A DNA stretch of 64,000 nucleotides from Phycisphaerales bacterium (GTDB lineage: Bacteria; Planctomycetota; Phycisphaerae; Phycisphaerales; UBA1924), in assembly GCA_015487555.1 (NCBI GenBank), contig WFPK01000052.1, forward strand, positions 44,144-108,143, written 5' to 3'. The notes under the pieces were generated by a model. That model did not search any database. It was given only the letters and a program-made list of their open reading frames with translations, and had not been told where the DNA came from. Of the stretch, positions 43,807 to 63,705 are shown piece after piece (position 1 is the stretch's first letter; each line of letters begins with the position of its first letter). Made by a program: the position numbers and the translations under genes.

Positions 43807-44143
43807 CTTGTTCACCTTCCTCGGGCCGAGCGAGCGCGGCTGGGTCGGAAGGTGAATGACCCCGCCGCGTTCGCTCATCGTCGGAGCAACCCGACAAACC
43901 CGTATTTGATGTAGATCATACCACACCGAACAAAGATGCGACAAAGCGGGCCCTCCATGATTTCGCAAAGACCCCCAAAATCATCATTTTCCCTGTTTTT
44001 TCCCTGTTTACCCAACAATCCATAGGAAACACTGGGAGCAGTACGCGCGCGTGCGCGAGGGGATGCCTCAAATCTACCCGCCTATGAATATCTCCCACCT
44101 GAAGAATGGACAAATCCGTCCAGATACACGATGATCTAGACAC

Positions 44144-51396: not shown

Positions 51397-51751
51397 CAAA
51401 ATATTTTCTCGCTGTAATAAATAACACCGCCTGCTTTCGCCACACGATTTATCGCCCCGCACGCCACACAAACGCCATATTTGACCTCCAAAACCACCCA
51501 GCCCCTCTTTTGCCCAACAGCAACAAGTGTAATTAAACACAACTCCTGCCACCCAGGCCAATCTGCGCACATCTCTCAATTGTAATATGTTACACTTCGC
51601 CCCACAAACCACCCACCTGCCAAACCCGCCGCTGCCCATCCGCACCGATCGCCACCTTCGCCACCCTCGGTTTGTGCTTGGTTATTCGTCCCCCTCGCGA
51701 TATAATCAGGCTCCAGAGCATCCTCTCCTCAACCCAACCGGGAGCCACCAA

Positions 51752-53488
51752 ATGACCACCAAAGCAACATCAACTCCAAACACCACCATCTCAGGCCCCG
51801 GCGTTGACCCTCAAACCGGGAAAGTCGATCCACACGCCGTCACCATCTCAGGCATCGCCCTCGACACCGCCTACACACCCGACAACCTCCCCACCTCGCT
51901 CGCCCACTACGACCGCGACATCAACAACCCCGGCCAATTCCCCTACACCCGAGGGCTCTTCCCCCAAGGCTACCGCACACGCCTCTGGACCATGCGCCAG
52001 TTCGCAGGCTTTGGCTCCGCAGACGACACCAACGAACGCTTCAAATACATCCTCGCCCAGACCAAAACCAAAACCGCAGCCAACACCGGGCTCTCCACCG
52101 CCTTCGATCTCCCAACACTCATGGGCAGAGACTCCGACGATGTCCTCTCGCTTGGCGAAGTCGGAAAGTGCGGCGTCGCCATCGACACCATCGAAGATAT
52201 GCACCGCCTCTACGCCGACATCCCCATCGACCAAGTCACCGTCTCCCAAACCATCAACGCACCCGCCGCCGTCATCTGGGCCATGTACCTCGCCATGGCC
52301 AAACAACGCAACATCCCCTGGGACACACTCGGAGGCACACTCCAAAACGACATCCTCAAAGAGTTCCACGCCCAAAACGAGTTCGTCTACCCACCCGAAG
52401 CCTCCACCAAACTCGTCGTCGATACCATCGAGTTCCAATCCAAATATGTCCCCAAATGGAACTCCGTCTCCATCTCAGGCTACCACATCCGCGAAGCCGG
52501 CTCATCCGCAACACAAGAGCTCGCCTTCACCCTCCGCGACGGCATGGAATATGTCGAAGCCTGCCTCGTCCGCGGGCTTGACATCGAAGACTTCGCCCCA
52601 CGCCTCTCCTTCTTCTTCAACGCGCACAACGAGTTCTTCGAAGAAATCGCCAAACTCCGCGCCGCACGAAGAATCTGGGCACGCATGATGAAGGATCGCT
52701 ACGGCGCCAAGAACAAACGCTCATGGTTCATGAAAACCCATGTCCAAACCGCAGGCTGCTCCCTCACCGAGCAACAACCATACAACAACATCGTCCGCGT
52801 CGCCTACCAAGCCATGGCCGGCGTCTTGGGCGGATGCCAATCACTCCACACCGACTCGATGGACGAAACCCTCGGGCTCCCAACAGAACAAGCCGTCACC
52901 ATCGCCCTGCGCACCCAACAAATCCTCGCCCACGAAACCGGCGTCACAAGAACCACCGACCCCCTCGGCGGCTCATACTTCATCGAAGCACTCACCGACA
53001 AGGTCGAAGCCGAAGCACTCGCCTACATCGAAGAAATCGACAACATGGGCAGAGGCCCATGGAAACCAGAACACGCCACAACCTCAACAATCGACGACGG
53101 CGGGTGCGTCCAAGGCATCCACAAAGGCTACTTCCGAAGAAAAATCGCCGAGGCCTCCTACCGCTTCTCCGAAGAATGCGAAGCCGGCGACCGAATCATC
53201 GTCGGCGTCAACGAATACATCGACCCCAACGAAGACCGCCAGGTCGAAATCCTGACCATCTCCGAAGAAGTCGAAACCACCCAGGTCGAAACCCTCAAAG
53301 CCTTCAAGTCCAAACGCGACCAAGCCGGCGTCCAAACCGCCCTCGAAGCCATCCGCGAAGCCGCCCGAAACAACGAAAATGTCATGCCAAGCCTCATCGA
53401 AGGCGCCCTCGCCAACTGCACCCTCGGCGAAATGGTCCAAGCCATGGCCGACATCTACGGGCGGTATACGGGTGGCCCAGAGTGGTGA
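51752..53488 (+). CDS. Methylmalonyl-CoA mutase family large (catalytic, TIM-barrel) subunit without a B12-binding domain
   Basis: The start is trimmed to MTTKATST (GGGAG upstream). Typical MCM motifs are present: FPYTRG, RTRLWTMRQFAGFG, NTGLSTAFDLPT, and TNGT-like regions. The protein ends at ...YGRYTGGPEW, before any DxHxxG cobalamin domain. Confidence 0.88.
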   Translation: MTTKATSTPNTTISGPGVDPQTGKVDPHAVTISGIALDTAYTPDNLPTSLAHYDRDINNPGQFPYTRGLFPQGYRTRLWTMRQFAGFGSADDTNERFKYILAQTKTKTAANTGLSTAFDLPTLMGRDSDDVLSLGEVGKCGVAIDTIEDMHRLYADIPIDQVTVSQTINAPAAVIWAMYLAMAKQRNIPWDTLGGTLQNDILKEFHAQNEFVYPPEASTKLVVDTIEFQSKYVPKWNSVSISGYHIREAGSSATQELAFTLRDGMEYVEACLVRGLDIEDFAPRLSFFFNAHNEFFEEIAKLRAARRIWARMMKDRYGAKNKRSWFMKTHVQTAGCSLTEQQPYNNIVRVAYQAMAGVLGGCQSLHTDSMDETLGLPTEQAVTIALRTQQILAHETGVTRTTDPLGGSYFIEALTDKVEAEALAYIEEIDNMGRGPWKPEHATTSTIDDGGCVQGIHKGYFRRKIAEASYRFSEECEAGDRIIVGVNEYIDPNEDRQVEILTISEEVETTQVETLKAFKSKRDQAGVQTALEAIREAARNNENVMPSLIEGALANCTLGEMVQAMADIYGRYTGGPEW

Positions 53489-53692
53489 GCATAAACAACT
53501 TGCACATTTTGGCTAGGTGCCCCGACGGAGCCGTCTTCGGCGAAGGAGGTCTTCAAACAACCATAACCACCAAATCCTCCTTTCCCCTTCGGGGTAAAGG
53601 AGGGCACCACTGCCACCTCTTCCGAATCTCAATCACACCCAGCCGCTATACTGATCCGCCGGGCTGGCATGTCTCCCAAGAGGATGGTGCGA

Positions 53693-54715
53693 ATGCGAAA
53701 ACGGGTGTATCTTCATATCGGGTGGGAGAAGACCGGCACCAGTGCGATCCAAGTCTTCTGCGCACGCAATCAAGATTGGCTCAACGAGCGAAACATCCAC
53801 TACCCGCTGATGGGCAAGCTGCCTCAGCATGTGGATTTGTATACTGACCTCAAAGACGCGAACGCTTCGCGGATTCGGCGATCATGCGAAGCCGTCCGTG
53901 CCGAGATTGCACGCTGCGAACAAGAATCACTCATCTTCTCCCACGAAAGCCTGCACCTCTGTAGCCCCGCAATCTTCGCCGACATCTTCAAAGGCTGCGA
54001 TGTCCGCATCATCGCCTACCTCCGCCGACCCGACGAAGCCTTCATCTCCTTCTTCGTCACCATGGCCCGCTACGGGCTGATCCCCGTCGATAACCTGCAC
54101 CGTTCGATCCGCAAGTTCTCGCACGATCATATCAACCGATTCGAGTACAAGCACACATTGGCCAGATTCGCCTGGGAGTTTGGCCGCGACATGCTCACAG
54201 TGCGCCACTATCACCCCGATGATCTGATCGGTCGCCAAACCCTCACGGATTTCATGCACCAGTTGGGAATCGAGGATCTGGAAAACTCGAAATGGCCTGA
54301 AGATCATTCAAACCTGTCGCTCGATGCCGATCAGTTCGCGATCGTGCTCCGCCTGGCCCGTTCACTCCGAGCCCTCCCCAAAGCTCGGGTCTGCGAACTC
54401 ACGCGCCAACTCAGCGATGCAATGATCCTGCATGGATCACCCAACCATGCAAGAAGCGTCGTGCGCTTTGTCCCCGCCTCGCTCCGCCATCGGCTCTTGG
54501 CACACTGGAAGGATTCATTCGAAGCGTTGTACGCCGAGTATTTCGATGGACGAGCGATTTTCGACGACGAATCATGGGCAAAAATCAGCAAGCCCTCCCC
54601 AGCAATGACACCCGAGCGACTCGACGAGCTTATCGCCATCGTACACCAAGCCGATGTGCTGTCCGCACCAGAGAGCACCCAGTTTCTTGATTCGTTGCAC
54701 CAGCTGACGCATTGA
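53693..54715 (+). CDS. Hypothetical protein with a sulfotransferase-like P-loop (putative sulfotransferase fold)
   Basis: The N-terminus MRKRVYLHIGWEKTGTSAIQ resembles the 5'-PSB motif (xKxGTT/S) of sulfotransferases. AAGAGGA lies 9 nt upstream. The family assignment is tentative. Confidence 0.4.
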   Translation: MRKRVYLHIGWEKTGTSAIQVFCARNQDWLNERNIHYPLMGKLPQHVDLYTDLKDANASRIRRSCEAVRAEIARCEQESLIFSHESLHLCSPAIFADIFKGCDVRIIAYLRRPDEAFISFFVTMARYGLIPVDNLHRSIRKFSHDHINRFEYKHTLARFAWEFGRDMLTVRHYHPDDLIGRQTLTDFMHQLGIEDLENSKWPEDHSNLSLDADQFAIVLRLARSLRALPKARVCELTRQLSDAMILHGSPNHARSVVRFVPASLRHRLLAHWKDSFEALYAEYFDGRAIFDDESWAKISKPSPAMTPERLDELIAIVHQADVLSAPESTQFLDSLHQLTH

Positions 54716-54930
54716 GCACCCAAACACACAAAATCTCCTCCCCTCATTCCACCCCCCCATATCCCGTGAGATATGAAACTTTTTCCGCAATACAAGTCAG
54801 CCCCCGCATCCCCCGAGCCGATAATTGACCCTGTGTATACTTCGTCATCTCACGCCAACAGGGCGCTCAAGCTGCTGAGTTGACATGACTTTGAAAACTC
54901 CAAAGAACTCGGAGGGGGAAGCGTATTTCG

Positions 54931-57543
54931 ATGATCGGCCAGGAGCAACAAACCGCCGAGCTCTGGTGGGCCAAGCCGCACGATCCGTCGATGTCGCTGC
55001 GGTCTCAGATTCGAGTAATACGAGATCAGCACGCCGATCGTCCCGCTGTGCTGATCGGCGACGACGAATGGCTCACCCACGGCGAGCTCCATCGCCGGGC
55101 CCAGAGATTGGCCCGGGCCATCAACGCTGCCCGCAAAGCCAACCCCGGCCCCATCGTCTGCCTTGTGGGCACCAACGCCTCGCTCTATGTCTGCCTGATC
55201 TGTGTCATCAACGCCGACAGCGACTTCTCCATGCTCGACCCCGCATCACCACCCAAACGCAACAAGCTGGCAGCCCAAAGCATCGACGCCCAGGTCGTGC
55301 TCGTCGATCACACCACCGCCCACCTCGCCCAGGACATCGTCGCCGAGTCCGGATCAATCATCAACATCGACACCGACGAATCCGATCAGCCCGATACCGA
55401 GCCCGACAATGACAACAGCAATAACGATCCCTCCCAACCCAGAGCCTTCATCTTCACCTCAGGCTCAACAGGCCAACCAAAGGGTGTCATCCGCTCATTC
55501 TCGAGCATACTCCATTCCCAATACAACATCTCCGCCCGGCTGAGCTACGAACCAACCGACACCCTGCTCTACATGGGCTCGCCCGGACATGTCGGCACAC
55601 TCAACGATGCCCTGAGCGTGCTACTCAACGGGCACGCCTCGGTCGCGCTGAGCCTCGAGAACCTCGACATCAGCGCCGTCTGGAAAGCCATCGTCAAACA
55701 CCAGATCACCAAAGCCTCCCTCGCCCCATCACTCATGCGCGTCTGCCTCCGCTATGGCGCCGAGCACGAAAAAGCGACGAGCATGAAGTGCGTCGCATCA
55801 AGCGGCGAGCCCCTGCTCCGAAGCGATATCGCCTTGTTTTATAGCCTCTTCGACAAATCCGTCCAACTCTGGCAGAGCTATGGGTCCACCGAATGCGGGC
55901 ATATGTGCGCCGGGTACTACTCACCTGAAGACGCCATCGGCATCGGCCCGCTCCCGCTGAGCAAACCCGCCAGCAGCGTCCGCATCGAAGTCCTCGACGA
56001 AAACCAAACCCCCGTGCTCCCCGGAAACGAAGGCGCAATCCGCGTCCGCACACCCGGGCTCGCCGAGGGCTACACCGCGGCATATCAATCCTCCGAGTCC
56101 GGGTTTGGATGCGATGAAGACGGACGCTATTTCATCACCGGCGACCGCGCTCAACTCCTCAACGATCAAAGAATCATCATCATCGGACGCGCAGACCGCC
56201 AGATCAATATCCACGGACGAAGACTCGAACTCTCCGAAGTCGAATCCGCGATCCTCTCGACCCCAGGCTGGGCCGACGCATCAGTCGTCCTTCTCAACCC
56301 AGACGACCACTCGCCACAGATCGCCGCGATGGTCAGCCCAAGCACCAAAAGCGACGCAGACCTGCAAAGACTCAACGCCGAGCTCCGCGACCTGCTCCCC
56401 CAATCCGCGCTCCCCAAACTCATCAAAGTGGTCGATCATCTCCCCAAAACAATCACCGGCAAAACAGACCTCCAAGCAATCACCAACACACTGCAACAAG
56501 AACAACTTCAATCCGCCACCAACCCCCCACCTGATACCCAAATGCCCATCGGCCCAACCGAAAACTGGATCGCAGACGCCTGGCAAGAGGTGATGCGCGC
56601 AAAGCAACGCCCAGGCAGGAACATCGGATTCGATGAGTTCGGCGGCGACTCACTCAACGCCATCAACCTCTGCCTCACCCTAGGACAACAGTTCGGCATC
56701 GAAGTCGGACTCGACTTCATCACCGATCACCCCACCATCGCCATCCAGGCAACATTCCTGCAACAGGAAAACCGAGTAATACAGCGAAATCGCTTTGTGC
56801 CGTTGCAAAGCACAGGGAACGGCCCGGTGATCTTCCTCTTCCCAGGACTCGGCGGGCACGCCTGGGTCTACCGCGCCTTTGCCAGAGAACTCTGCGAAAA
56901 GAACTGCGATCTTGTCGCCATCAACTACCTCATCACAGACGACTCGAACAAATCGAGTTTGCACCCGCACCTCCTCGCCAAAGAAGTGACAGAGCATATC
57001 CGCTTGAATCAAATGGAAAATCGCCAACTGATCTTCGCTGGATATTCGCTCGGCTCACTCGTCGCTACAGGCGTAGCCAATGCAATCAATCAGACAGAAT
57101 CCCCCCCGACGATCCAGGCCCTCCTGCTGCTCGACCCATCCCCGGTGTCCTCGCCAAGCCCACTCAAGCGCGGGCTCCATCTTCTCAAATCAAAGGCGAG
57201 ACAGATCAAATCAGGAAAGCCAAAGGGGGCCCGCCAGGAAATCGCCCGCCGACGCCTCGATCGCGATATCCAGCACACGACAAAGGCCCTCAAAAAACAC
57301 TATCGCCCAAACACAACCCGCCTGGCTGCCCACGATTTCCGGGTCATATTCACCCAAGAAGGATACCGGGAACTCACTCCAAACAAGGACTTGTTTGATC
57401 GCTGCCTGGATGCGGATGACTTTATCCTCCTCGACGACCTCAACCACCTCGATCTACTCCGATCCAAAGGCGTCGCGCGGTGCGCCCAGTGGGTCTGGGA
57501 GCAAGTCGAAGGGCTCAATACCAAGCAAGATATCCCCTCCTAA
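54931..57543 (+). CDS. Stand-alone NRPS-like enzyme: adenylation - thiolation (PCP) - thioesterase
   Basis: A-domain cores are FIFTSGSTGQPKGV, SYGSTECG, GDRAQL, GRADRQINIHGRRLELSEVE and LPKTITGKTD. The carrier motif is FGGDSLNAINL. The alpha/beta-hydrolase nucleophile is GYSLGS, within a C-terminal domain of about 250 aa. There is no condensation domain. Confidence 0.85.
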   Translation: MIGQEQQTAELWWAKPHDPSMSLRSQIRVIRDQHADRPAVLIGDDEWLTHGELHRRAQRLARAINAARKANPGPIVCLVGTNASLYVCLICVINADSDFSMLDPASPPKRNKLAAQSIDAQVVLVDHTTAHLAQDIVAESGSIINIDTDESDQPDTEPDNDNSNNDPSQPRAFIFTSGSTGQPKGVIRSFSSILHSQYNISARLSYEPTDTLLYMGSPGHVGTLNDALSVLLNGHASVALSLENLDISAVWKAIVKHQITKASLAPSLMRVCLRYGAEHEKATSMKCVASSGEPLLRSDIALFYSLFDKSVQLWQSYGSTECGHMCAGYYSPEDAIGIGPLPLSKPASSVRIEVLDENQTPVLPGNEGAIRVRTPGLAEGYTAAYQSSESGFGCDEDGRYFITGDRAQLLNDQRIIIIGRADRQINIHGRRLELSEVESAILSTPGWADASVVLLNPDDHSPQIAAMVSPSTKSDADLQRLNAELRDLLPQSALPKLIKVVDHLPKTITGKTDLQAITNTLQQEQLQSATNPPPDTQMPIGPTENWIADAWQEVMRAKQRPGRNIGFDEFGGDSLNAINLCLTLGQQFGIEVGLDFITDHPTIAIQATFLQQENRVIQRNRFVPLQSTGNGPVIFLFPGLGGHAWVYRAFARELCEKNCDLVAINYLITDDSNKSSLHPHLLAKEVTEHIRLNQMENRQLIFAGYSLGSLVATGVANAINQTESPPTIQALLLLDPSPVSSPSPLKRGLHLLKSKARQIKSGKPKGARQEIARRRLDRDIQHTTKALKKHYRPNTTRLAAHDFRVIFTQEGYRELTPNKDLFDRCLDADDFILLDDLNHLDLLRSKGVARCAQWVWEQVEGLNTKQDIPS

Positions 57544-58397
57544 ACCTCTTCCCCCTCCACCGTCAGCTCCACCCGATCCTTGTGCCCGAACCAGGTGTTG
57601 CGATCTGGACGCTCGCTCGCATCCTTCCCAATCCCATACTTCTCCTCGAGCAGTTTCGTCACATCCTCCATCGTGGCATCATCAGCCACCCATCGCCAGA
57701 TGTCCGGAAAATCCACCGAGCAGTTCGCACACTTATTCGTATCCGAAAACCGGATCGGGCACCAGAACGATTCGACATTGCGAAGCATCTCCGACCCCAG
57801 CGACCACACACCCGTCATCCAATCACAATACAAGCACCAGATCAGATCATGCCCAACCAACCCATCAAACTTCTGGCGTGACACATTCACCCACTCCCCC
57901 TGCTTATGCCTGGGAAACCGAAGCAACCAAATCAAGAGCGGATAAATCAACAGCTCACCCAGCCGAACCGTCCAAAACAACGGCACCGCCAACGCCGAAA
58001 CCCACAACGCCCCATGATTCCGCCATCGCCCGACAAGTTTGTTGAGCACCTTGACAATCCGAGGCCCCTTGACCGCCTTGCGATGGGCAAGCTCGTGCCC
58101 CCACCCCCACACAACCAATCCGATCATCTGCCCGATGATTCCGCCGAGCAACCCCCGCCAGCCAAAGGCGATCAGACCCGCAATCGCAGGCCCAACCGTG
58201 AACCACGCCACCACCACATCAAGCCCGGGTGCCTTGCGACACACCTCCATCGCCCACTTCCCAAAGCCCCCCATCTTGGCCACCATATGAAGCACCACCG
58301 CCCCACCAACGACCGCCACAAACCCGACGCCAACCATCATCAAAAAGTCACCCACGATCGCCTCCATTTCAACGCCAAAGATCAGCCCCAACACCAC
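57540..58397 (-). CDS. Polytopic membrane protein with an HExxH motif and a C-terminal 4-Cys domain
   Basis: GWGHELAHRK (58083..58097) sits at the end of a hydrophobic helix. The C-terminal part has CLYC...CPIRF...CANC. No family was recognised. Confidence 0.5.
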   Translation of the reverse strand: MVLGLIFGVEMEAIVGDFLMMVGVGFVAVVGGAVVLHMVAKMGGFGKWAMEVCRKAPGLDVVVAWFTVGPAIAGLIAFGWRGLLGGIIGQMIGLVVWGWGHELAHRKAVKGPRIVKVLNKLVGRWRNHGALWVSALAVPLFWTVRLGELLIYPLLIWLLRFPRHKQGEWVNVSRQKFDGLVGHDLIWCLYCDWMTGVWSLGSEMLRNVESFWCPIRFSDTNKCANCSVDFPDIWRWVADDATMEDVTKLLEEKYGIGKDASERPDRNTWFGHKDRVELTVEGEEV

Positions 58398-58447
58398 AGC
58401 AAGACAATCGAGCTCCCCCCACCTTTATTCGATCGTTCATTGACAAA

Positions 58448-58726
58448 CTAACGCGTCGCAATCCACATCAACACAAACCACCCCAGCGCATGCACCCCCG
58501 CGATGCCATAGAGCATCCACATATACCTCGGCTTGGCGACCTTGTGATTGATCGCCCGTGTCACCAAAATCGCCCCGGGCCAACCACCCAACAACTCGAA
58601 CGAGTGCAGCGTCTTCTCCTTGACCCGCCAGCGCCCACGCACCGCCTGGTGCTTATCCCAGATGTGCATCGCTGCACAGAGCACACTTAGCCCGAGATAG
58701 TAGAAGAAGAATACTTTCCAGAGCAT
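58448..58726 (-). CDS. DUF1294-family small membrane protein
   Basis: MHIWDKHQAVRGRWRVKEKTLHSFELLGGWPGAILVTRAINHKVAKPRY matches the DUF1294 pattern (DK..A..g.wRi.E..L......GG..GA......rHK..K). Confidence 0.7.
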   Translation of the reverse strand: MLWKVFFFYYLGLSVLCAAMHIWDKHQAVRGRWRVKEKTLHSFELLGGWPGAILVTRAINHKVAKPRYMWMLYGIAGVHALGWFVLMWIATR

Positions 58727-60540
58727 ACCGGGTCATCCTCACCATTCTCGCCATCGCCAAACTGCGACTCACCCCACAGCATCAGGTTCATCATCGGCCA
58801 GGCCATGTGCCAATAGCTCGCCGGACGGGCGCAGACCATGCCCAAAGCCTGCTCGGTAAAAAACTCTCGCGCAATCGGCGAATCAAAGAGCCGATCCGTC
58901 ATCGACCCCATCCAATGCTGGAACGGGAGCGGGAAACTCGCCTTGGGACGGTTGACGATCTCGGGGGGCAACTCATCTTTGAAAGCCTGGCGAAGCGCGA
59001 TCTTGGTCTGCTCATGCTCACCCGCGACATACTTCTGATCCATCGGCAGGTTCTCAGCACAGATCGCCACCTCAATATCCGCATACGGCGTCCGCCCCTC
59101 GACCCCGGCGAGCATCGTCGAAGTATCAAGCCTCTGAAGCAAGTTCGGCAGGTTCATCCGGCGCTGAAAACGCACATGCGCCTGCAGCGCCGAGTCATTG
59201 GGCCCTTGAGATCGTACCTCATCGAAGACCTGCTGATAGTGCGCCTTGAGCTCCGCATCCCCATTGGCACCGTGATACCAAGGCTCACGCAGCACCCCGG
59301 GCTTGAGCTCGTCGGATATCCACGCATTGGCAGCGAGGTTGAAAAGCCCACCTTCGGTATCGTCATTTGCGTTCAAACCCGCGATGTGTCCTTGGGCTTG
59401 CTGCATGATCGGCCCATACCCACCGAAAAGCTCATCCGCCCCCTCGCCAGAGATCGCCACGATGTGCCCCTGCTTGCGCAAAGCCTCAGCCACCTCATAA
59501 ATCGCCACCTCATTGGGCGTCGATAAAGGCACACCAAGCCGAGCAACCATCCACCGCCACCGATCAACAAACCCCGCCTCAGTCATCTCGACCTCGGTAT
59601 GGTTCGTGCCCAGCTCCTTGGCCAACGAGTTCGCAAACGAAAAATCATCCGAAAAACCATCCACCTTCGCCCCGGCGCAATAGGTATGGAGCTCTCCGAG
59701 CGACCGCTTGGCCAAAAGTGTCGTGATCGCCGAGTCCAACCCACCCGAAAGAAGCGTACACATCGGCACATCCGTGCGAAGGTGCCGATGGATCGAATCC
59801 TCGATCGTCTGGCGAACACCCTGCGTGGGCGCACGCAAAGCCCCACTCCACCAGTTCCCCGTCGCGGTCTGCTCCGGCGAATCAAGCGGTATCGTGATCC
59901 ATTGCCCGGGTATCAGCGTCGAGACCCCCGCAAACATCGTCCGCTGCCCGAGTGTCGTGCGGATCGAAGAAAGATACGCCGACACTGTCACCGGATCGGG
60001 CTTGCGCTCAACTTCTGGATGTTCAAGAATCGCCGGGATCTCAGAAGCAACAACCAGCTGCCGCCCAGCGTCCCCCTCAACCATCGCATAATACACCGGC
60101 TTGATCCCCATCGGATCACGCGCAATGATCGCCATGCGATTCTGCGTATCAAGAAAGACAAAGCTGAACATCCCCCGAAGCTTCTCAATCGCCCCTTCAC
60201 CCCAGGTAATCAGCGCGTGCAAGAGCGTCTCGGTATCACAGCTCGATCGAAAAACACACCCGAGAGACGCAAGCTCGGAACGCAGATCGTGATCGTTATA
60301 AAGCTCCCCGTTATACGCCAGAACATACCGCTGATCGGGCGAAAGCATCGGCTGATGCCCCGCCAAGGTCGGATCAATCACCGACAACCGACAATGCCCG
60401 ATCGACCCGAGCTGCCCTTCCCAAACCCCGCTGTCATCAGGCCCCCGATGAATAAGCCGATCGCGCATGCGCTCGATCAGAGCACGAGGGATCCCAATTT
60501 GGCGAGCATCGAGATTGAGAACAGAAACAATTCCACACAT
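58687..60540 (-). CDS. Asparagine synthase (glutamine-hydrolysing) family amidotransferase
   Basis: The start is trimmed to MCGIVSVLN (N-terminal nucleophile Cys2). It has the Ntn glutaminase domain and the PP-loop SGGLDS. Confidence 0.85.
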   Translation of the reverse strand: MCGIVSVLNLDARQIGIPRALIERMRDRLIHRGPDDSGVWEGQLGSIGHCRLSVIDPTLAGHQPMLSPDQRYVLAYNGELYNDHDLRSELASLGCVFRSSCDTETLLHALITWGEGAIEKLRGMFSFVFLDTQNRMAIIARDPMGIKPVYYAMVEGDAGRQLVVASEIPAILEHPEVERKPDPVTVSAYLSSIRTTLGQRTMFAGVSTLIPGQWITIPLDSPEQTATGNWWSGALRAPTQGVRQTIEDSIHRHLRTDVPMCTLLSGGLDSAITTLLAKRSLGELHTYCAGAKVDGFSDDFSFANSLAKELGTNHTEVEMTEAGFVDRWRWMVARLGVPLSTPNEVAIYEVAEALRKQGHIVAISGEGADELFGGYGPIMQQAQGHIAGLNANDDTEGGLFNLAANAWISDELKPGVLREPWYHGANGDAELKAHYQQVFDEVRSQGPNDSALQAHVRFQRRMNLPNLLQRLDTSTMLAGVEGRTPYADIEVAICAENLPMDQKYVAGEHEQTKIALRQAFKDELPPEIVNRPKASFPLPFQHWMGSMTDRLFDSPIAREFFTEQALGMVCARPASYWHMAWPMMNLMLWGESQFGDGENGEDDPVCSGKYSSSTISG

Positions 60541-60795
60541 GACCATATCTATCGGTAATGTGAGCCCGTCAAGAACAAACTCGGACACCGACGCGCCAGC
60601 CAAAAAGCAAGCCGCCGCACACCTCACAACACTCTGCAAAATAAAGACTTCCAACTCGCAAACAAACAACCCACGATGCAGAAAGACCCAAATCGCTGGT
60701 GAACGCGCAGAATCGAAGTACACTCAAAGAAGAATCATAGATTCTTGGGGACACACATCATCAACTCAACACCAACTTCATACAAGGATACCAAT

Positions 60796-61467
60796 ATGAC
60801 CAAATCCGTCGCCATCGTTGCCCTGCTATCGACAGCCGCATGCACAGCCTCCGCTTCACTCACACAGTTTGCAACGCGAAGCGACTTCAACACCGCCTTC
60901 ACCAACGCATTGTTTGAAGACTTCGAAGAGGCCAACATCCCCGACGGCTCTGCCGGAACGACCTCCGAGCTCATCCTCGACTCAAACACTTCAAACGGAA
61001 TCTTCTCGACAGGAGATATCGTCGAAGGACTACGCCTGACCATCGCTGATGCACCAGCCGGAGGCCCATCCGACAACCTCTTCGTATCGAGCCTGGACTT
61101 TGCCAACTATACCTCGCACGCGATCTCGTATAACTACAACGACACGGTCGGCCCTGAGATCACAATCGACCTCACCAACAACAATGTCTTCGGATTCGCA
61201 ATGGATGTCACCGGCAATCCGGAAAACACACTCGTCGCAGTCGATGTCTATGCTGACGACATGCTTCTTGGCTCTTTCGAACTCGCAGGCACCGGCGCAG
61301 GAACATTCCTCGGCTTCTCCTCCGACACCAACATCATCACCCGGGTCACACTCACCGGTATCGACGACTACTTTGGCGTCGATAACATCGCCTTCGCAGT
61401 CCCCGCTCCGGGAACCGCCGGAATCATCGGCATCGGGCTCCTCTCAGCGATTCGCCGACGCCGATAA
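60796..61467 (+). CDS. PEP-CTERM sorting-signal protein
   Basis: Signal peptide MTKSVAIVALLSTAACTASA. The C-terminus is VPAPGTAGIIGIGLLSAIRRRR (PEP-like motif + TM + Arg cluster). Confidence 0.8.
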   Translation: MTKSVAIVALLSTAACTASASLTQFATRSDFNTAFTNALFEDFEEANIPDGSAGTTSELILDSNTSNGIFSTGDIVEGLRLTIADAPAGGPSDNLFVSSLDFANYTSHAISYNYNDTVGPEITIDLTNNNVFGFAMDVTGNPENTLVAVDVYADDMLLGSFELAGTGAGTFLGFSSDTNIITRVTLTGIDDYFGVDNIAFAVPAPGTAGIIGIGLLSAIRRRR

Positions 61468-61499
61468 TCCAAACATTCCCACTCGCACAGCACCTCGCC

Positions 61500-61527
61500 A
61501 AGCCGCCCACAAGGGCGGCTTGTTTCA
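61500..61527 (+). terminator. Stem-loop terminator after the first PEP-CTERM gene
   Basis: AAGCCGCCC-acaa-GGGCGGCTT, followed by GTTTCAT. Confidence 0.55.
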
Positions 61528-61684
61528 TGCCCACCCCCCCCCTACCTCCAAAGCATCGCTTGGAGACGATTCTTTGAAATTCCATACCAATTGGATGACT
61601 TTGGGATTGACACGATACAGGATATCCCTATCCTTATTGCAGGAGAGCGTTTTTTTACTCACAGAGAGACAGAGAGAAGAACAC

Positions 61685-62278
61685 ATGAACACCCCATTGA
61701 TCGCCCTTGTTGGCGTCGCTGCCTGCGCAGGCCTGGCGACCGCCTCACAGAGTACCCCCACCAATACCCCGCAACTCCAAGAATCTGCCCCTGCGGGCCC
61801 CTTCGCAACACTGACCATCGACCTCTCAGGCGTTGAATCCTGGGACTGGTTCAATGATCCAGACAACTACTACGCCTCGTACAACCTCATGCCAGATGCC
61901 CACATCGTCGGCGTCGGGTGGGACCTCACCATCGAAACCGCCGGGGCATCATGGATGTCCGAAGTCTTCATCGACATCCGAAACACCAACAGCACCGGAG
62001 GCGTCTCGCTCAACCCAGGGTTCAACGCCGCATACCCGGGCATAGAATCATTCTCCTCCGACGGCATCATCAGCATCGTCGGCAACGGTGACTTCTTCCT
62101 CAACAACAACGGCATGCTCCACCTCACCGTCTACGAAGGATGGGATGATAATGATGATGCTGTCGACGCAACCTTCCTCGCAGGCTCGGTGCTCTATGTC
62201 CAATATGTCGTCCCCGCCCCCGCCACACTGACCATGCTGGGCTTAGGCGGATTCATGGCCACACGCCGACGACGCTAA
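61685..62278 (+). CDS. PEP-CTERM sorting-signal protein
   Basis: The start is trimmed to MNTPLIALVGVAACAGLATA. The longer ORF from 61049 overlaps the previous gene and is Pro/Ser/Thr-rich. The C-terminus is VPAPATLTMLGLGGFMATRRRR. Confidence 0.8.
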   Translation: MNTPLIALVGVAACAGLATASQSTPTNTPQLQESAPAGPFATLTIDLSGVESWDWFNDPDNYYASYNLMPDAHIVGVGWDLTIETAGASWMSEVFIDIRNTNSTGGVSLNPGFNAAYPGIESFSSDGIISIVGNGDFFLNNNGMLHLTVYEGWDDNDDAVDATFLAGSVLYVQYVVPAPATLTMLGLGGFMATRRRR

Positions 62279-62324
62279 ACGACGACGCTCAACAAAATAC
62301 CGAGCACACCACGCTCTCACGCCC

Positions 62325-63170
62325 TTAGGTGTCCCCTCCTGAGGCGTCATCAGGCTTGCAGGTCTTGCAAGGCGCGTGGGTTTCTTTGACTTCTTCGCGG
62401 GTCGCTGGGCTTTGTGTGTCGGTCAGGTGCGGACAATCCTTGGCGTGATACTTCGACCCAAACTTGGTGATATACACCACCAAACTTGAAGGCGAAACAC
62501 CCGGATTCGCACCGGGCTTGCCCTCTGGTTTGTCAAGCGATTGGTCAAAAGGCTCGCCAGAGATCTTGGCAGGCTCATCCGATGGCGTTGACCAAACCAA
62601 AGGCTCACCCTGAGGATCCCAGATACCCTTGCCCAACCGCTCGGCCCTGGCTCCATAGAACGCGAAGCTCTTGCTATAGAGCGCACCATGCCGAGGATCA
62701 TGCCTGGCATACCCCTGACGGACAAGCTCCAGATTGACCAAAAGCATATCCGGAGCCCGAAAGAGATACCCCCAAACCCGATTCAATCCATCACGATCAA
62801 CGCTCGGATCATGCTGGATATAGACCGTTTCATCCAGAAGAAGCTGCTCGATGAACCGCCGAGCATTGATCGAATGCGGATCAGGAGCCCGATCTCGAGG
62901 GCTCAACTCCGGCGCATCAGCCCCCAAAAGCTGATACCGACGCGTTTTCTCCCCAATCTTGACCAAAATCGTGTCCCCGTCGATAACGCGAACAACCACC
63001 CCCAAGACAAGCTCGGACCGATCGGGGAGCTCGAGAACCGGGAGCGTGTCGATGAGCGTGTCAACCTCTGCGCCACCCGTTGGAGTCGGCCCTAAACCCA
63101 ACAAAGCAACCAGAAAAAAGGCACAGGCACACACAATCATCACCAGATGCACCCGCGCCCATAAAAACAT
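62325..63170 (-). CDS. Thermonuclease (SNase) family protein with an N-terminal TM and a C-terminal Cys/His motif
   Basis: VVRVIDGDTILVKIGEKTRRYQLLGADAPE is the SNase core. The C-terminus is KYHAKDCPHL...APCKTCKP. GGAG lies 6 nt upstream of the ATG at 63170. Confidence 0.8.
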   Translation of the reverse strand: MFLWARVHLVMIVCACAFFLVALLGLGPTPTGGAEVDTLIDTLPVLELPDRSELVLGVVVRVIDGDTILVKIGEKTRRYQLLGADAPELSPRDRAPDPHSINARRFIEQLLLDETVYIQHDPSVDRDGLNRVWGYLFRAPDMLLVNLELVRQGYARHDPRHGALYSKSFAFYGARAERLGKGIWDPQGEPLVWSTPSDEPAKISGEPFDQSLDKPEGKPGANPGVSPSSLVVYITKFGSKYHAKDCPHLTDTQSPATREEVKETHAPCKTCKPDDASGGDT

Positions 63171-63249
63171 ACCTGCTCCAACCTGCTCCAATACGACCCA
63201 ACACCAACTGCTTCAAAGAGCTCCCCGCCCCCTGCCTCCTGCCCGGTGT

Positions 63250-63705
63250 TTAGACCCAGACATTGAGGATCAGATTGGGTTCTTTGTTCTTTCCCGTCCA
63301 TGTCCCAATTGAGGAAGTCACATGCTTGACCTCATACTGCGGATGCGCATCGAGCCATTCATTGACTTGCTGATCCAGAAACTCGAGCGAATCCCCAGTG
63401 AGCTTGCAATGAAAACTCTTGACATGGATCGCCCCCGTGCCATTGGCATTGGGCGTGCGACTCCATGAGTCCTCATGACGAACAGACCGAAGCTTTTGCT
63501 CGAAGGTCCGAATCTTGGGCGGCGATGCCCCTCCCGATCCCGCCGGATCAGGCCCGAGATCAAGCGGAAGGGTGTCATCAAGCGATTGCTCACCCTCGTC
63601 AGATGAAGCTTTGGACTTCTTCTTATCTTCAGGCGGCTCAGACGCCGGCCCAGAATACCCCGGTGGTAACGGATGTCTATACAGTCCCCGCATCATGGTC
63701 TCCAA
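63250..63705 (-). CDS. Hypothetical protein
   Basis: 151-aa ORF with a low-complexity N-terminal half and a structured-looking C-terminal half (IHVKSFHCKLTGDSLEFLDQQVNEWLDAHPQYEVKHV). No family was recognised. Confidence 0.4.
   Translation of the reverse strand: METMMRGLYRHPLPPGYSGPASEPPEDKKKSKASSDEGEQSLDDTLPLDLGPDPAGSGGASPPKIRTFEQKLRSVRHEDSWSRTPNANGTGAIHVKSFHCKLTGDSLEFLDQQVNEWLDAHPQYEVKHVTSSIGTWTGKNKEPNLILNVWV

Follow-up and report, generated by a model that had tools for sequence, protein, structure and literature searches.

An 8.6-kb stretch of a Phycisphaerales genome mixes backbone genes with accessory ones, as a mosaic, and does not form one pathway. It occupies positions 53693–62278 of the window, a 64,000-nucleotide piece of contig WFPK01000052.1 (positions 44,144 to 108,143, assembly GCA_015487555.1) to which unprefixed coordinates refer. 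Its accessory genes include one for an enzyme resembling nonribosomal peptide synthetases (NRPS), in which adenylation, carrier and thioesterase (TE) domains form a single polypeptide (A-T-TE). Our preferred interpretation, on which we place about even confidence, is that A-T-TE combines acyl activation and acyl transfer in one fused enzyme and is tied to exosortase and exopolysaccharide (EPS) systems, as an analogue but not a member of the accessory set that accompanies the exosortase XrtA. The original prediction, made from the DNA letters, had suggested that the genes of the stretch may form one compact exosortase-associated modification pathway. Window proteins were obtained by open reading frame (ORF) listing and translation and then scanned with Pfam and NCBIfam; these steps confirmed every gene listed, each at its place.

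The A-T-TE gene (54931–57543, + strand) encodes 870 aa, and its Pfam domains (AMP-binding, AMP-binding_C, PP-binding and Thioesterase) all score above cut-off. The nearest solved relatives of the adenylation (A) domain (about 54931–56520, +; AMP-binding 174 bits, with AMP-binding_C) are NRPS A domains, namely LgrA (E 8e-65) and EntF (E 7e-31), together with tyrocidine and surfactin modules. Motifs A3 (FTSGSxGxxK), A5 (WQxYGSTE), A7 (GD), A8 (GRxDxQ) and A10 (Lys511) are invariant in the family alignment. TIGR01733, the model for NRPS amino-acid adenylation, gives 223.4 bits, below its cut-off of 317.4, and is still the best-scoring model for the protein. The carrier domain (about 56566–56742, +) passes PF00550 (39.4 against 20.8 bits) and carries Ser574 within a GGDSL motif, with G571, G572, D573 and S574 invariant. 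The thioesterase (about 56803–57540, +) passes PF00975 (43.2 against 26.4 bits) and presents Ser706/Asp735/His839; PGxGGHAW, GxS706xG, D735 and H839 are invariant. An AlphaFold2 (AF2) model of the TE domain (predicted local distance difference test, pLDDT, 86.9) was matched by Foldseek to 3lcr, 6ecf, 5ja1 and 6ojd (E 1e-8 to 1e-10, TM 0.58–0.64), placing the fold among polyketide synthase (PKS) and NRPS thioesterases, namely TMC TE, Vlm2, EntF, NocB and RifR. The Pfam scan found no condensation (C) domain in the protein. All three domains look catalytically competent, and their combination predicts a complete, self-contained loading and off-loading enzyme; the genome encodes one phosphopantetheinyl transferase. 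A-T-TE resembles terminal NRPS modules in its A domain (EntF, LgrA) and in TE fold (EntF, Vlm2, NocB), and differs from them by having no C domain and no Asp235, by its score below the TIGR01733 cut-off and by an identity of only 25–27%.

In NRPS A domains, Asp235 binds the substrate alpha-amino group, and this residue is replaced in domains that activate keto acids and hydroxy acids. Across 17 family members the A4 motif FDxS is replaced by GSPGHVGTLND, which is invariant or nearly so. HMMER aligns Val221 with Asp235 (within the FDGS of LgrA), Gly222 with position 236 and Asn225 with position 239, and the specificity code, read by hand from motif spacing and one HMMER alignment, is roughly V-G-N-S-x-S-S-H-M-K. 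The exchange of Asp235 for Val makes it likely that the substrate lacks an alpha-amino group, and the enzyme probably activates a small polar acid of this kind.

The A-T-TE family comprises about 17 protein clusters, mostly from Phycisphaerales, with 30–78% identity and a uniform length of 840–885 aa with the same three domains; outside it, identity falls to 28% or less. Most members come from metagenome-assembled genomes (MAGs) or short contigs. Only one of 24 genomes of the genus (G024) carries a full-length orthologue, 41% identical and at an unrelated locus. Sampling of 400 Planctomycetota genomes returned no further close member, and the four distant A-T-TE/NRPS matches found there are without the GSPGH motif; a metagenome scan added two usable loci. 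In a maximum-likelihood tree the family splits into two well-supported clades. It is a rare, undescribed family of Planctomycetota and an accessory gene, and literature searches brought up nothing relevant on exosortase-linked A-T-TE enzymes or planctomycetal NRPS-like enzymes of this type. One member (31% identity) lies in a MAG labelled Halieaceae (Gammaproteobacteria; locus L087), is identical to metagenome contig L101 and has Tol-Pal-like and housekeeping genes as neighbours; it could reflect horizontal transfer or a binning error.

Genomic contexts were drawn from the encoding contigs, species-representative genomes and metagenome contigs, and were annotated with Pfam, phmmer against reference proteins and a regular expression for the PEP-CTERM tail, flanking genes being called by a longest-ORF rule. 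Among the 14 distinct arrangements obtained, nine have exosortase (three), polysaccharide or PEP-CTERM genes within 10 kb of A-T-TE, and these positive contexts are found on deep branches in each of the two clades. Three separate lineages have an exosortase within this distance. In L061, glycosyltransferase (GT), exosortase, AAA_31, TPR, PEP-CTERM and A-T-TE genes follow one another along a single strand, accompanied by a further two PEP-CTERM genes; in L086 (Pirellula sp.), an exosortase-PEP-CTERM-x-PEP-CTERM series precedes A-T-TE; in L085, exosortase, Wzz-like and Bac_transf genes lie at 5–9 kb. L089 (Aeoliella sp.) is an EPS locus in which A-T-TE stands after genes for a sigma-54 activator, an Alg14-like protein, Bac_transf and NTP_transferase and before Poly_export. 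A further arrangement, shared by L079, L058, L081, L096 and L080, places A-T-TE stop-to-stop (28–93 bp) with a UDP-glucose dehydrogenase/glycosyltransferase/sulfotransferase/Wzx cluster, and this EPS flank is kept while the upstream flank occurs in two unrelated versions. L088 has a PEP-CTERM gene within 10 kb; L082 has a DUF4394 PEP-CTERM protein and a rhomboid; L059 has three PEP-CTERM genes upstream and, downstream, an orphan 1277-aa protein, a sulfotransferase and a GT cluster. In the window clade (window, L023, L025 and L124) the gene lies by the AsnB backbone described below, with PEP-CTERM genes in two of the four loci at differing positions. Members from either deep clade stand beside genes for exosortase, PEP-CTERM proteins or EPS, and the family is enriched there. 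The proposed link to PEP-CTERM, exosortase and EPS systems is supported for A-T-TE, through the three exosortase-bearing lineages and the EPS loci, and is not supported for the other genes of the stretch.

The orphan protein of L059 (L059:8412–12245), which has no Pfam match, begins with membrane helices and contains an internal module in duplicate (WWEAE...GETFGNPxxFR...); its gene sits between those of A-T-TE and the sulfotransferase, on the same strand.

As stated at the outset by the original prediction, the window contains no exosortase gene. The genome encodes two, on contigs C86 and C37 (the window belongs to contig C52), accompanied by Wzz-like and large TPR genes, and both score below the XrtA cut-off (TIGR03109, 132 and 102 bits against 208). 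No protein of the genome reaches the TIGR03098 cut-off, and none matches TIGR03101. A sulfated-EPS cluster (GT2/GT4/sulfotransferase, Wzx, UDP-glucose dehydrogenase), orthologous to the cluster abutting A-T-TE in other Phycisphaerales, is split over three contig ends (C3:9–4720, C26:7–2492 and C73:191–1528).

The XrtA accessory set consists of a ligase (TIGR03098), an amidotransferase (TIGR03108), hydrolases (TIGR03100/03101) and a carrier. The A-T-TE family shares with it the ligase, carrier and hydrolase functions and the association with exosortase and EPS genes, but fuses all three functions in one NRPS-type polypeptide and scores 123.6–124.5 bits on TIGR03098, far below the cut-off of 592.35. 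Its TE is not matched by any exosortase A-associated hydrolase model, the exosortases found here are not XrtA, the range of the family is Planctomycetota, and the AsnB of the window is an unrelated core gene. Dlt D-alanylation (DltA/DltC) is the classic transfer of a carrier-bound small acid to a cell-surface polymer; A-T-TE differs from it by having no DltB/DltD-like partners. Because every curated model tested fails, A-T-TE is not a member of the XrtA-associated or Dlt-like families. The original prediction had credited the description of the accessory set to Haft and colleagues; Haft et al. 2006 (PMC1569441) mentions no ligase, acyl carrier protein (ACP), hydrolase, AsnB or amidotransferase, and the attribution goes back to TIGRFAM/NCBIfam family names, under which the ligase/AsnB-like set does exist.

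Downstream of A-T-TE, three minus-strand genes belong to a different unit. The first encodes a membrane protein with an HExxH motif (57540–58397, −; HELAH, with a Cys-rich C-terminal part), which matches no Pfam or NCBIfam model; its gene is convergent to A-T-TE and the two stop codons overlap. Next come a small DUF1294 membrane protein (58448–58726, −; PF06961, 68 bits against a cut-off of 25) and an AsnB-family protein (58687–60540, −), here AsnB paralogue 1, which starts MCGIV and contains GATase_7 (128 bits) and Asn_synthase (210 bits). The end of the AsnB gene and the beginning of DUF1294 share 40 nt, in L023 as in the window. Of the 24 genus genomes, 23 carry an AsnB orthologue (the genome without one is 56% complete), flanked on one side by DUF1294 in most genomes and on the other by genes for an SNase-domain protein (62325–63191, −; PF00565, 31 bits) and a 151-aa protein, p151 (63250–63705, −), which in the window lie beyond the 8.6-kb stretch and are part of the backbone block. 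Adjacency of p151 and AsnB is also seen outside this family, elsewhere in the order. The HExxH protein is encoded by 13 of the 24 genomes and by members of three more families (51–87% identity), usually 3–5 kb from AsnB, and nearly all of its carriers are without A-T-TE. AsnB, DUF1294 and, in part, the HExxH protein thus form a minus-strand unit of a conserved p151-SNase-AsnB-DUF1294 backbone that is independent of A-T-TE. The last ~88 residues of p151 are 57–88% identical across the backbone genomes (window 58448–63705 and loci L029–L057), and the protein has no family assignment.

The AsnB protein had been proposed as an exosortase-type amidotransferase. It passes the asparagine synthase model TIGR01536 (374.9 against 267.1 bits, in one stretch over model positions 1–517) and fails TIGR03108, the XrtA/PEP-CTERM amidotransferase model (283 against 816.9 bits), so that the assignment falls to the general asparagine synthase family, an outcome that the original prediction had named as counting against it. 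With that family it shares the N-terminal Cys and both domains, and it differs by its tight coupling to DUF1294. A second paralogue of 680 aa (G000:C44:27587–29629, equivalent to L004:1225–3267), whose glutaminase domain carries a proline-rich insertion, also passes TIGR01536 (338 bits), scores 313.7 bits on TIGR03108 and is present in all 24 genus genomes. Asparaginyl-tRNA synthetase is present in the window genome and searches of that genome found neither AsnA nor GatB; therefore at least one AsnB must make asparagine. Either paralogue could be the housekeeping enzyme, since each clears the TIGR01536 cut-off and each is core to the genus.

Upstream of A-T-TE, a gene for a 340-aa protein, ST348 (53693–54715, +), lies between A-T-TE and a methylmalonyl-CoA mutase-like (MCM) gene (51587–53488, +). 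Its ORF opens at 53669, and homologues begin at M9. The window protein has no Pfam or NCBIfam match and no match in a sequence search of the PDB; PF00685 was found in one member of its family, whose close protein clusters, about 24 in number, come without exception from Phycisphaerales-type sources. Residues H16, G18, K21, T22, G23 and R119...S127 are invariant in the family alignment, with an HxGxxKTGT[ST] loop conserved, and resemble in spacing and character the 5'-phosphosulfate-binding (5'-PSB) and 3'-phosphate-binding (3'-PB) motifs for 3'-phosphoadenosine 5'-phosphosulfate (PAPS). An AF2 model built on that alignment (pLDDT 88.8) has as its top PDB match by Foldseek the bacterial sulfotransferase 3rnl (E 7e-4), followed by the tyrosylprotein and heparan-sulfate sulfotransferases TPST, NDST and 3-OST (prob about 1.0), with modest TM-scores (0.38–0.46 query-normalised; for 3bd9, 0.46 by query and 0.59 by target). 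These matches support the prediction that ST348 is a sulfotransferase-fold protein.

ST348 occurs in six of the 24 genus genomes, including genomes without A-T-TE, and in G024 it is on another contig than A-T-TE. Upstream of A-T-TE it is absent in the closest relatives, L023 (where PntB takes that place), L025 and L124 (where the order is MCM, a 77-aa ORF and A-T-TE), and it is also absent from loci L022 and L026. Being sporadic and missing at this position in the closest relatives, ST348 is an accessory gene and a lineage-specific insertion between the MCM and A-T-TE genes. As a candidate partner of A-T-TE it was rejected, given its absence from L022, L023, L025 and L026 and its presence in A-T-TE-free genomes. 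The small ORFs upstream of A-T-TE in L059, L061, L062 and L025 were likewise rejected as a conserved partner gene; they are unrelated to one another and to ST348. The window genome carries a second ST348 paralogue, 44% identical (G000:C77:1353–2237), and G024 a divergent pair of the family (C38:83422–85443; loci L065/L072), so that the family appears as a small, expanding set of sulfotransferase-fold proteins confined to this group.

On the far side of AsnB, two putative PEP-CTERM-type secreted proteins are encoded at 60796–61467 (+; tail VPAPGTAGIIGIGLLSAIRRRR) and 61685–62278 (+; tail VPAPATLTMLGLGGFMATRRRR). Both have a signal-like N-terminus and, at the C-terminus, VPAP, a hydrophobic helix and an RRRR tail, so that they are recognised by the tail motif, with Pfam PEP-CTERM scores (16.3 and 16.0 bits, respectively) below the 20.7-bit cut-off. 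The second matches PepA NF033554 weakly (E 1.5e-5) and has a homologue, 31% identical, upstream of A-T-TE in L025. Most of the relatives, L023, L025 and L029 among them, have SNase directly after AsnB with no intervening PEP-CTERM gene; the pair is a lineage-specific insertion at this point. Neither ST348 nor the PEP-CTERM pair, both proposed as pathway members, is conserved next to A-T-TE even in its closest relatives. Conservation of the neighbourhood is therefore divided: the AsnB-DUF1294-HExxH block is kept, and ST348 and the PEP-CTERM pair beside A-T-TE are not. Between positions 44000 and 64000 of the window, the + strand has a strongly negative GC skew (−0.15 to −0.5) and a positive AT skew irrespective of gene orientation, and alternative frames hold many long spurious ORFs.

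If A-T-TE does act on surface polymers, it would adenylate a carboxylic acid that is small, polar and devoid of an alpha-amino group, at best guess an alpha-keto or alpha-hydroxy acid. The acid would remain bound to the enzyme's own carrier domain through a thioester until the TE transferred the acyl group to a surface glycan or to exosortase-processed cargo, at a hydroxyl or an amine. The enzyme would be a one-polypeptide functional analogue of the exosortase A ligase, ACP and hydrolase sets and of Dlt-type decoration. A more specific version, which we offer tentatively and regard as somewhat doubtful, is that the GSPGHVGTLND-type enzymes are an accessory family of planctomycetal exosortase/PEP-CTERM systems whose TE acylates a sulfated exopolysaccharide or an exosortase cargo acceptor with a non-amino acid. 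The main competing explanation is that A-T-TE makes a free small molecule and decorates no polymer, its TE dimerising or oligomerising the acid or releasing a signal or surfactant; we consider this possible, if on balance unlikely. NRPS-like enzymes of A-T-TE order that act on alpha-keto acids include the fungal TdiA/AtrA-type quinone synthetases and the bacterial RalA and EchA; A-T-TE quinone and furanone synthetases dimerise aryl alpha-keto acids, and the TEs of EntF and Vlm2 oligomerise esters. The domain order without a C domain and the Val at position 235 fit such enzymes, and the TE fold, which most resembles product-releasing PKS/NRPS thioesterases, the oligomerising TEs of Vlm2 and EntF among them, would suit release or oligomerisation just as well. 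A self-sufficient synthetase would also be expected to have no conserved partner gene. The A-T-TE pocket, however, is otherwise small and polar where those of the TdiA/AtrA/RalA type are aromatic, and beyond Val235 and Lys517 it does not appear to resemble the aromatic keto-acid code. GSPGHVGTLND is invariant in the family, the genomic context of A-T-TE is one of surface-polymer genes and not of metabolite clusters, and no tailoring, export or resistance genes of metabolite-cluster type lie beside A-T-TE at the loci examined. Small-molecule synthesis near such genes does have a precedent, in that N-acyl amino acid synthases adjoin PEP-CTERM/exosortase genes, including in a planctomycete, according to a passage of PMC7293339 that cites Craig et al. 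2011.

Several observations weigh against the link to surface polymers itself. Both substrate and acceptor are inferred, and loss of Asp235 would fit aryl, fatty or beta-amino acid substrates too. An all-against-all comparison of neighbours (10, then 19 loci) found no neighbour family common to the whole A-T-TE family; most EPS-adjacent A-T-TE genes are convergent to the cluster and outside its operon; and in the window genome neither of the exosortase loci, nor the sulfated-EPS cluster, is linked to A-T-TE. For five of the 14 arrangements (L060/L084, L062, L083, L087/L101 and L122) the available sequence, which in several cases has short flanks, reveals no gene for EPS, exosortase or PEP-CTERM proteins. 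The neighbourhood may then be a product of chance, with A-T-TE serving a role unrelated to surface polymers, such as activation or turnover of a metabolite acid, and with proximity arising from gene abundance and shared ancestry. PEP-CTERM genes are numerous in Planctomycetota, the window genome alone holding 36 ORFs with a VPxP...RRRR tail in about 25 places, and the Halieaceae-labelled member has ordinary housekeeping neighbours. In the window genome, from which the background density was taken, a PEP-CTERM ORF is no more than 7 kb away for 12% of the sequence, and an exosortase no more than 10 kb away for about 1.5%. At p = 0.015, three exosortase neighbours among 14 have a binomial probability of about 1e-3, a figure that overstates significance because the contexts are phylogenetically related and the background is that of a single genome. 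We nevertheless consider chance improbable, given an exosortase in three separate lineages against so low an expectation per locus, an EPS flank kept while the other flank changes, and positive contexts in both deep clades. Far less credible is the proposal that ST348, A-T-TE, the HExxH protein, DUF1294, AsnB and the PEP-CTERM proteins form one compact exosortase-associated pathway, to which we attach very little probability. The genes are physically adjacent in the window and partly so in L023 (A-T-TE, HExxH, DUF1294 and AsnB) and L025 (A-T-TE, DUF1294 and AsnB), and NCBIfam does hold XrtA-associated ligase and amidotransferase families. Against this, between 13 and 23 of the 24 relatives have kept AsnB, DUF1294 and the HExxH protein, and just one has A-T-TE; comparison of neighbours across loci never placed them near distant A-T-TE genes; the insertion of ST348 and of the PEP-CTERM pair is peculiar to the window lineage; and the AsnB and A-T-TE proteins fail TIGR03108 and TIGR03098 in a genome with no TIGR03101 match and no XrtA. 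The distribution of the genes already contradicts a single pathway.

For the AsnB, DUF1294 and HExxH genes, adjacency to PEP-CTERM genes alone gives no ground for annotation as EPS-modification functions. Exosortase/PEP-CTERM systems are widespread in environmental bacteria, and the questions touched here are what their cargo is attached to and what the recurrent acyl-activating accessory genes produce. If the link of A-T-TE to these systems is true, the enzyme would offer a tractable, one-gene entry to exosortase-system chemistry, simpler than the multi-gene XrtA cassette.

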